Below the pieces are notes generated by a model. The model was not told the origin of the DNA and did no database searches. It saw nothing but the letters and a program-made list of their open reading frames with translations. Positions 15,777 through 16,067 of a stretch of DNA of 64,000 nt are shown in pieces; position 1 is the first letter of the stretch; every line of letters begins with the position of its first letter. Source of the stretch: Escherichia coli (lineage in GTDB: Bacteria; Pseudomonadota; Gammaproteobacteria; Enterobacterales; Enterobacteriaceae). The stretch lies in assembly GCF_001677475.2 (NCBI RefSeq), contig NZ_CP015229.1; one strand, 5' to 3'. The position numbers were made by a program, and so were the translations under genes.

Positions 15777-16049
15777 GTAACGCATCTGTTTTTGTTTGTC
15801 ATGCTGTAGACGGATCATTATCTATCATTATAAGTCTACAGAATCTGAACATCGCATTATCTGTGTAGAAATGCCCATTTAACTGCCTGAAGAGTAACCC
15901 AACGGCCTTTTTATTTCACCACCTAATCCTCCACCAGCCAGTAACTTCTCTTTTTCTCGCCGCCCTGAGTCAGCGTGTTTAGCCACTGTAACAAATATTA
16001 AAATAGCAGGTGTTTAATCGCACAACATGATGCTATGCTGACCAAACCG

Positions 16050-16067
16050 TGTTTAGTAAATTAAACA
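16050..16067. promoter_or_regulatory. candidate NadR (NAD box) operator at the nadB start region
   Basis: Palindrome TGTTTAgtaaatTAAACA immediately upstream of the nadB ATG, with a further TGTTTA at 16011-16016; resembles the NadR half-site motif but the spacing was not checked against the consensus. Confidence 0.35.

Follow-up and report, generated by a model that had tools for sequence, protein, structure and literature searches.

The inverted repeat that ends just before nadB in this Escherichia coli chromosome is not new: it is the nadB operator of the repressor NadR, found here in a further strain of the species. [quoted passage not shown] This assignment combines a consensus match, uniqueness within the window, invariance across 79 species and a position relative to the transcription start site (TSS), all computed here, with a consensus and NadR binding that come from published papers; nucleotide-level occupancy of nadB by NadR rests on secondary citations.

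An exact NadR operator upstream of nadB

The gene order in this 64-kb window of the E. coli chromosome is rseB-rseA-rpoE-rseD followed divergently by nadB-trmN-srmB. The gene for the sigma factor, rpoE (15091-15666), and the leader peptide gene rseD lie on the minus strand, separated from nadB by a spacer of roughly 400 bp. The segment from 15650 to 16250 is found at 95-100% identity in 5425 of 5426 complete E. coli genomes, with two genomes at 90-95%, and is annotated in E. coli genomes with rpoE, rseD and nadB. The regulated gene, nadB (16074-17696, plus strand), encodes a 540-aa L-aspartate oxidase, which carries out the first step of de novo NAD synthesis; its open reading frame product scores 1048 bits against the NCBIfam equivalog NF006567, for a cut-off of 629, and the gene is annotated as nadB in E. 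coli genomes. One E. coli NadB database entry is 561 aa long instead of 540 and is 95% identical over the full query, probably because of a mis-called start or an extension.

The NadR operator is described as a palindromic 18-bp site with the consensus TGTTTA-N6-TAAACA, found in the promoters of genes for NAD synthesis de novo and for NAD salvage, and bound through an N-terminal HTH domain that is present only in enterobacterial NadR (PMC2330245; PMC2330246). O1 reads TGTTTAGTAAATTAAACA, which is to say TGTTTA and TAAACA around a GTAAAT centre: an 18-bp inverted repeat with 0 mismatches to the consensus, placed within the promoter of a gene for NAD synthesis, with its last base 6 nt before the nadB ATG (16074). 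The exact pattern occurs once in 64 kb and in 0 of 100 dinucleotide-preserving shuffles, for an analytic expectation of about 64000/4^12 = 0.004. When up to two mismatches are allowed, the window holds 8 matches against 2.4 expected, and the hexamer TGTTTA by itself occurs about as often as expected (31 observed, 30.6 expected).

A first-pass annotation, made from the DNA letters alone, had located the palindrome correctly at 16050-16067, 6 nt before the nadB ATG, together with an extra TGTTTA at 16011-16016, and its suggestion of a NadR operator is borne out by the exact match to the published 18-bp consensus. It had also called the palindrome perfect, which is accurate for the 6-nt arms but not for the centre, GTAAAT, where only T8 and A11 pair. 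The N18 spacing that it expected, and with which the site seemed to disagree, turns out to be a mistake, as 18 is the total length of the operator and the spacer is N6 (PMC2330245; PMC2330246); the puzzle over spacing is gone because the total length had been taken for the spacer.

Evidence for NadR at the nadB promoter comes from Salmonella: a 2025 study reported that NadR binds the nadB and nadA-pnuC promoters of S. Typhimurium by EMSA and ChIP-qPCR, that deletion of nadR leads to 8-10-fold derepression, and that binding is modulated by NAD, ATP and c-di-GMP (PMC12421817). The regulon has been described as consisting of a core, nadA-pnuC, and variable members, nadB, pncB, niaP and nadR (PMC5343134). 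The nadR gene lies outside the 64-kb window; in E. coli NadR, a Pfam HTH_3 domain (residues 7-59) precedes the adenylyltransferase and kinase parts, and we infer from K-12 NadR, and from the window being E. coli, that this strain also has an HTH-bearing NadR.

In K-12 MG1655 an identical box lies at 2710396-2710413, again 6 nt before the nadB ATG, and O1 shows no difference from the known nadB NAD box. The K-12 nadA box (TGTTTAGCATATAAAACA) lies 72 nt and the pncB box (CGTTTAGTACAATAAACA) 30 nt before the respective ATG, and a perfect GTTTAG (or CTAAAC) half is common to the nadB, nadA and pncB boxes. O1 is like the other enterobacterial NAD boxes (nadB, nadA-pnuC, pncB) in being an 18-bp inverted repeat at an NAD gene, in the region where the polymerase starts. 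The site predicted for NadR at Proteus mirabilis niaP, TGTTTAGTATACTAAACA (PMC2330245), has the same arms and the same G after the left arm (TGTTTAG), but it belongs to a niacin transporter gene and its centre, GTATAC, is symmetric, whereas the GTAAAT of nadB is asymmetric. No paper was matched when full texts were searched with the operator sequences themselves. The operators of NiaR, NrtR and NadQ serve the same purpose as O1, the repression of NAD synthesis genes, but these regulators are from unrelated protein families, use other DNA motifs and occur outside Enterobacteriaceae.

Conservation among Enterobacteriaceae

We scanned species-representative genomes for NadB and retrieved 80 loci with NadB 84-97% identical, from Escherichia, Citrobacter, Enterobacter, Kluyvera, Lelliottia, Buttiauxella, Kosakonia, Pluralibacter, Cedecea, Mangrovibacter and other genera. 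The window and the 78 loci with usable upstream DNA make up the 79 sequences compared. TGTTTAG-N5-TAAACA is present without mismatch in all 79 nadB upstream regions, starting 20-26 nt before the ATG; one further row, with the box at -14, reflects a mis-set start. Seventeen of the 18 positions of O1 are kept in at least 97% of the sequences and one in 85-97%, and the spacer is predominantly GTAAAT, with GTACAT in five sequences and GCGCAT in one. Such constancy goes far beyond what N6 demands, and GTAAAT must be under some constraint that the published consensus does not capture, for example contacts with NadR, the shape of the DNA or a function within the mRNA leader.

In whole-spacer alignments, intergenic columns near nadB are mostly less than 70% conserved. 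The exceptions are O1, a TG-n-TA---T pattern that corresponds to an extended -10 element, a GTG at 16010-16012, an A-tract at 16001-16005, and positions 15976-15982 and 15990-15992. The gene rpoE is divergent upstream of nadB in all 78 loci tested. The nearest protein representatives are 58-63% identical to NadB, and one of them served as an outgroup control: in that single genome (NadB 63% identical), the arrangement rseB-rseA-rpoE divergent from nadB is kept, and no box is found even at 3 mismatches. The box is therefore exact in 79 of 79 sequences and missing from the single outgroup, which shares the gene order. Two other searches were uninformative: the 120 matches listed by a NadB protein-homologue search were all at the E. 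coli level (95-100% identity) and had nothing to say about relatives of the Yersinia or Serratia grade, and a megablast of 34-mers against 5426 E. coli genomes (O1, the second site described below, and a control) did not bear on the boxes because one SNP in a flank is enough to disrupt the 28-base seed.

Promoter context of the operator

Supplementary Data 2 of a SMRT-Cappable-seq study (NC_000913.3) lists a sole TSS for nadB (b2574), at 2710391 on the forward strand, as well as TSSs for nadA-pnuC (782002) and for pncB (990414, reverse strand; PMC6131387). K-12 aligns with the window here without indels, at an offset of 2694346, which puts the nadB TSS on the plus strand at 16045 as listed, or at 16046 (K-12 2710392) if the table is 0-based; both are A. 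The start of thrL, which we take to be 148, is given as 147 in the same table, and hence the table may be 0-based. The nadB TSS thus comes from one high-throughput K-12 data set, with an ambiguity of +/-1; the portion of the Cappable-seq supplement covered holds no entries for the nadB region (PMC4782308).

From this mapped start and the pattern of conservation, we could identify the nadB promoter. A simple consensus scan for sigma-70 -35 and -10 elements called no promoter at nadB, as would fit a promoter with a poor -35. The segment TGcTATGCT (16031-16039, plus strand; TG at 16031-16032, hexamer TATGCT at 16034-16039) lies 6-7 nt upstream of the TSS, and its main bases (T, G, T, A and the last T) are kept in at least 97% of the 79 sequences; from its sequence pattern we read it as an extended -10 element, at a suitable distance from the start. 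The extra TGTTTA at 16011-16016 (plus strand) falls at -35 to -30, 17 nt upstream of the -10, and is probably best read as a weak -35 region and not as an operator half-site; other genera have GTGCTA or similar at this offset, where only the GTG at 16010-16012 is conserved. Further upstream, at 16000-16008 (plus strand; -46 to -38), lies an A-rich tract, AAAATAGCA in the window and roughly AAAAAAAAC in other genera, with TAAAA at 16001-16005 conserved; its position and composition suggest that it is possibly the proximal UP-element subsite of the nadB promoter.

Measured from the mapped K-12 starts, the three boxes occupy comparable stretches, about +5 to +22 for nadB, -8 to +10 for nadA and +12 to +29 for pncB. 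O1 is hence directly downstream of the extended -10 and the TSS, a usual place for a repressor and one compatible with repression, and all three boxes appear to be placed such that a bound repressor would exclude RNA polymerase or block its escape. The proximity of O1 to the ATG follows from the shortness of the nadB leader (28-29 nt). The first-pass annotation had described the site as overlapping the translation start region, which is right as geometry but not as function, because the context is transcriptional, with the box at these leader positions.

The proposed mechanism is then as follows. When NAD is plentiful, NadR with NAD as co-repressor would occupy O1 and, bound at about +5 to +22, would compete with RNA polymerase or block promoter escape, presumably by steric occlusion, such that L-aspartate oxidase expression would be shut off. 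When NAD falls, or when ATP or c-di-GMP displaces NAD, NadR would leave and nadB would be transcribed with its short leader.

The stretch between operator and ATG (16068-16073) is 2-8 nt long across species and variable in sequence, with no clear Shine-Dalgarno. The ribosome-binding region of the nadB mRNA therefore consists largely of the transcribed operator itself, which may be the reason for the near-invariant spacer GTAAAT.

Alternative readings of the palindrome

An RNA-level element, in which a hairpin formed by the transcribed palindrome beside the start codon controls translation or mRNA stability, draws on several of the same observations: the box is transcribed and stops 6 nt short of the ATG, no evident Shine-Dalgarno lies between the two, the spacer is almost invariant in 79 species (more than a DNA N6 spacer requires), and the centroid fold of the leader contains the 6-bp hairpin. 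We consider this reading extremely unlikely, as the minimum free energy (MFE) of the leader is -7.3 kcal/mol against a mean of -6.96 kcal/mol for shuffled sequences (z = -0.16), the MFE structure leaves the hairpin unused, five of the six pairs of its stem are A-U, no Rfam family matches the O1 region, and the nadA box straddles its TSS and is hence only partly transcribed. The chances that the palindrome arose by accident in an AT-rich leader are practically nil: AT-rich intergenic DNA readily yields short inverted repeats, but none of the 100 shuffles reproduced this one, its 18 positions are conserved over 79 species and it matches exactly a consensus that was defined independently, and the conservation data already refute a chance origin.

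The remaining alternatives assign part of the palindrome to something else. The idea of an operator made of a long-range pair of half-sites, which would take in the TGTTTA at 16011-16016 that the first-pass annotation had counted among its half-sites, starts from the fact that this hexamer lies 39 bp upstream of O1 in the same orientation in E. coli. Comparison does not support it: just 4 of 79 sequences have the hexamer at that offset, whereas all 79 have O1. At this density chance alone would supply one TGTTTA (as the bare hexamer is not enriched in the window, an isolated copy is unremarkable), the published consensus spacing is N6 and the hexamer falls on the promoter's -35, all of which makes such a pair very unlikely. 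It is likewise very improbable that the left arm of O1, TAAACA on the minus strand, is mainly the -35 of a distal rpoE sigma-70 promoter and the palindrome thereby part of the control of rpoE. A promoter TAAACA-17-CATCAT was listed on the rpoE side by Shimada et al. 2014, as a guess from genomic SELEX (PMC3946193), and maps to the minus strand at 16055-16050 and 16032-16027; six rpoE promoters have been reported, some of them distal (PMC6358824). However, the -10 CATCAT is not conserved outside Escherichia, the portion of the SMRT-Cappable-seq table covered has no reverse-strand TSS between K-12 2710300 and 2710499 (the rpoE starts in that portion are 2710088, 2710154 and 2710165), and both arms of O1 are symmetrically conserved, as for a palindrome bound by a dimer. 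Such a promoter would in any case be compatible with binding of NadR at O1.

Nearer to rpoE, we observed a conserved sigma-E-type promoter on the minus strand (GGAACTT at 15776-15770, then a 16-nt spacer and TCTAA at 15753-15749; TSS at about 15742), and this promoter (15749-15776) agrees with the K-12 reverse-strand TSS 2710088. A perfect TATAAT on the minus strand (15827-15832), within the strongly conserved block CATTATAAGTC, lies just upstream of mapped rpoE/rseD starts at about 15819 and 15808 (K-12 2710165 and 2710154). The plus-strand promoter TAGACT-16-TATAAG that the SELEX paper lists on the nadB side in the same stretch is unsupported by the mapped nadB TSS.

Rfam matches elsewhere in the window are AsrC, an antisense RNA of the rseC mRNA (12660-13491, plus strand, 507 bits), opposite the rse operon; an rRNA operon with spacer tRNA and StyR-44 (31717-36720, minus); tmRNA (ssrA; 61864-62226, plus); the rncO leader (9663-9877, minus); the Phe leader (pheL; 43161-43286, plus); RyfD (39717-39855, minus); and ohsC (6054-6131, plus).

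A second conserved site upstream of the promoter

The consensus scan and the conservation profile also bring out a NAD-box-like site at 15976-15993 (-70 to -53), TGTTTAGCCACTGTAACA, which we call O2 and regard as a candidate auxiliary NadR operator. O2 begins with a third TGTTTA (15976), which the first-pass annotation had overlooked, and has two mismatches to the consensus. Across the 79 sequences, GTTTAG is kept in all 79, A16 in 78 and C17 in 79, giving the consensus TGTTTAGCCATTACAACA. The site thus resembles the primary operator, with 2-4 mismatches in the arms across species and a right arm that is degenerate, and it stands as an island of conservation inside flanks that are not conserved, a few bases upstream of the A-tract (-46 to -38).

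The distance between the starts of O2 and O1 is 74 bp in 48 sequences, 73 bp in 29, and 72 and 75 bp in one each (n = 79). The predominant 73-74 bp correspond to about seven helical turns and so lie near an integral number. In contrast to this fixed spacing, the distance to rpoE varies between 360 and 527 bp.

Because the invariant positions of O2 are those common to known NadR sites, and because its spacing from O1 is close to seven helical turns, the balance leans slightly towards O2 being a low-affinity auxiliary NadR site, which we put forward as a hypothesis. Less certain than this, and rather doubtful for the moment, is the further idea that O1 and O2, which bracket the nadB promoter, are bridged by a multimeric NadR that would loop out the core promoter. 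Loops formed by paired operators have known precedents in repression, as with gal OE/OI, lac O1/O3 and NagC at nagE-nagB. In these systems, as at nadB, where the spacing is held at 73-74 bp, the two operators flank the core promoter; nadB differs in that bridging to the candidate O2 by NadR is only hypothetical and in that the right arm of O2 is degenerate. Against an auxiliary NadR role for O2, the spacing would also be held simply by the promoter elements that lie between it and O1, and at K-12 nadA and pncB we saw no comparable second site.

O2 also faces the divergent rpoE, and NAD status might consequently affect distal rpoE promoters as well. Alternatively, O2 could serve the distal rpoE promoters of Klein and Raina (PMC6358824). 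A scan of the intergenic region for the sigma-54 consensus gave no convincing match near O2. We found no description of O2 in the literature covered, and the site may already be known.

Significance

O1 is the switch by which enteric bacteria fit de novo NAD synthesis to the NAD pool. Its identification here annotates the rpoE-nadB intergenic region correctly and adds nothing new to biology; the possible value of the analysis lies in O2. If O2 is a real auxiliary operator, NadR, a fusion of enzyme and repressor, would use paired operators at nadB, and the site might link NAD status to the neighbouring gene for the envelope-stress sigma factor, rpoE.
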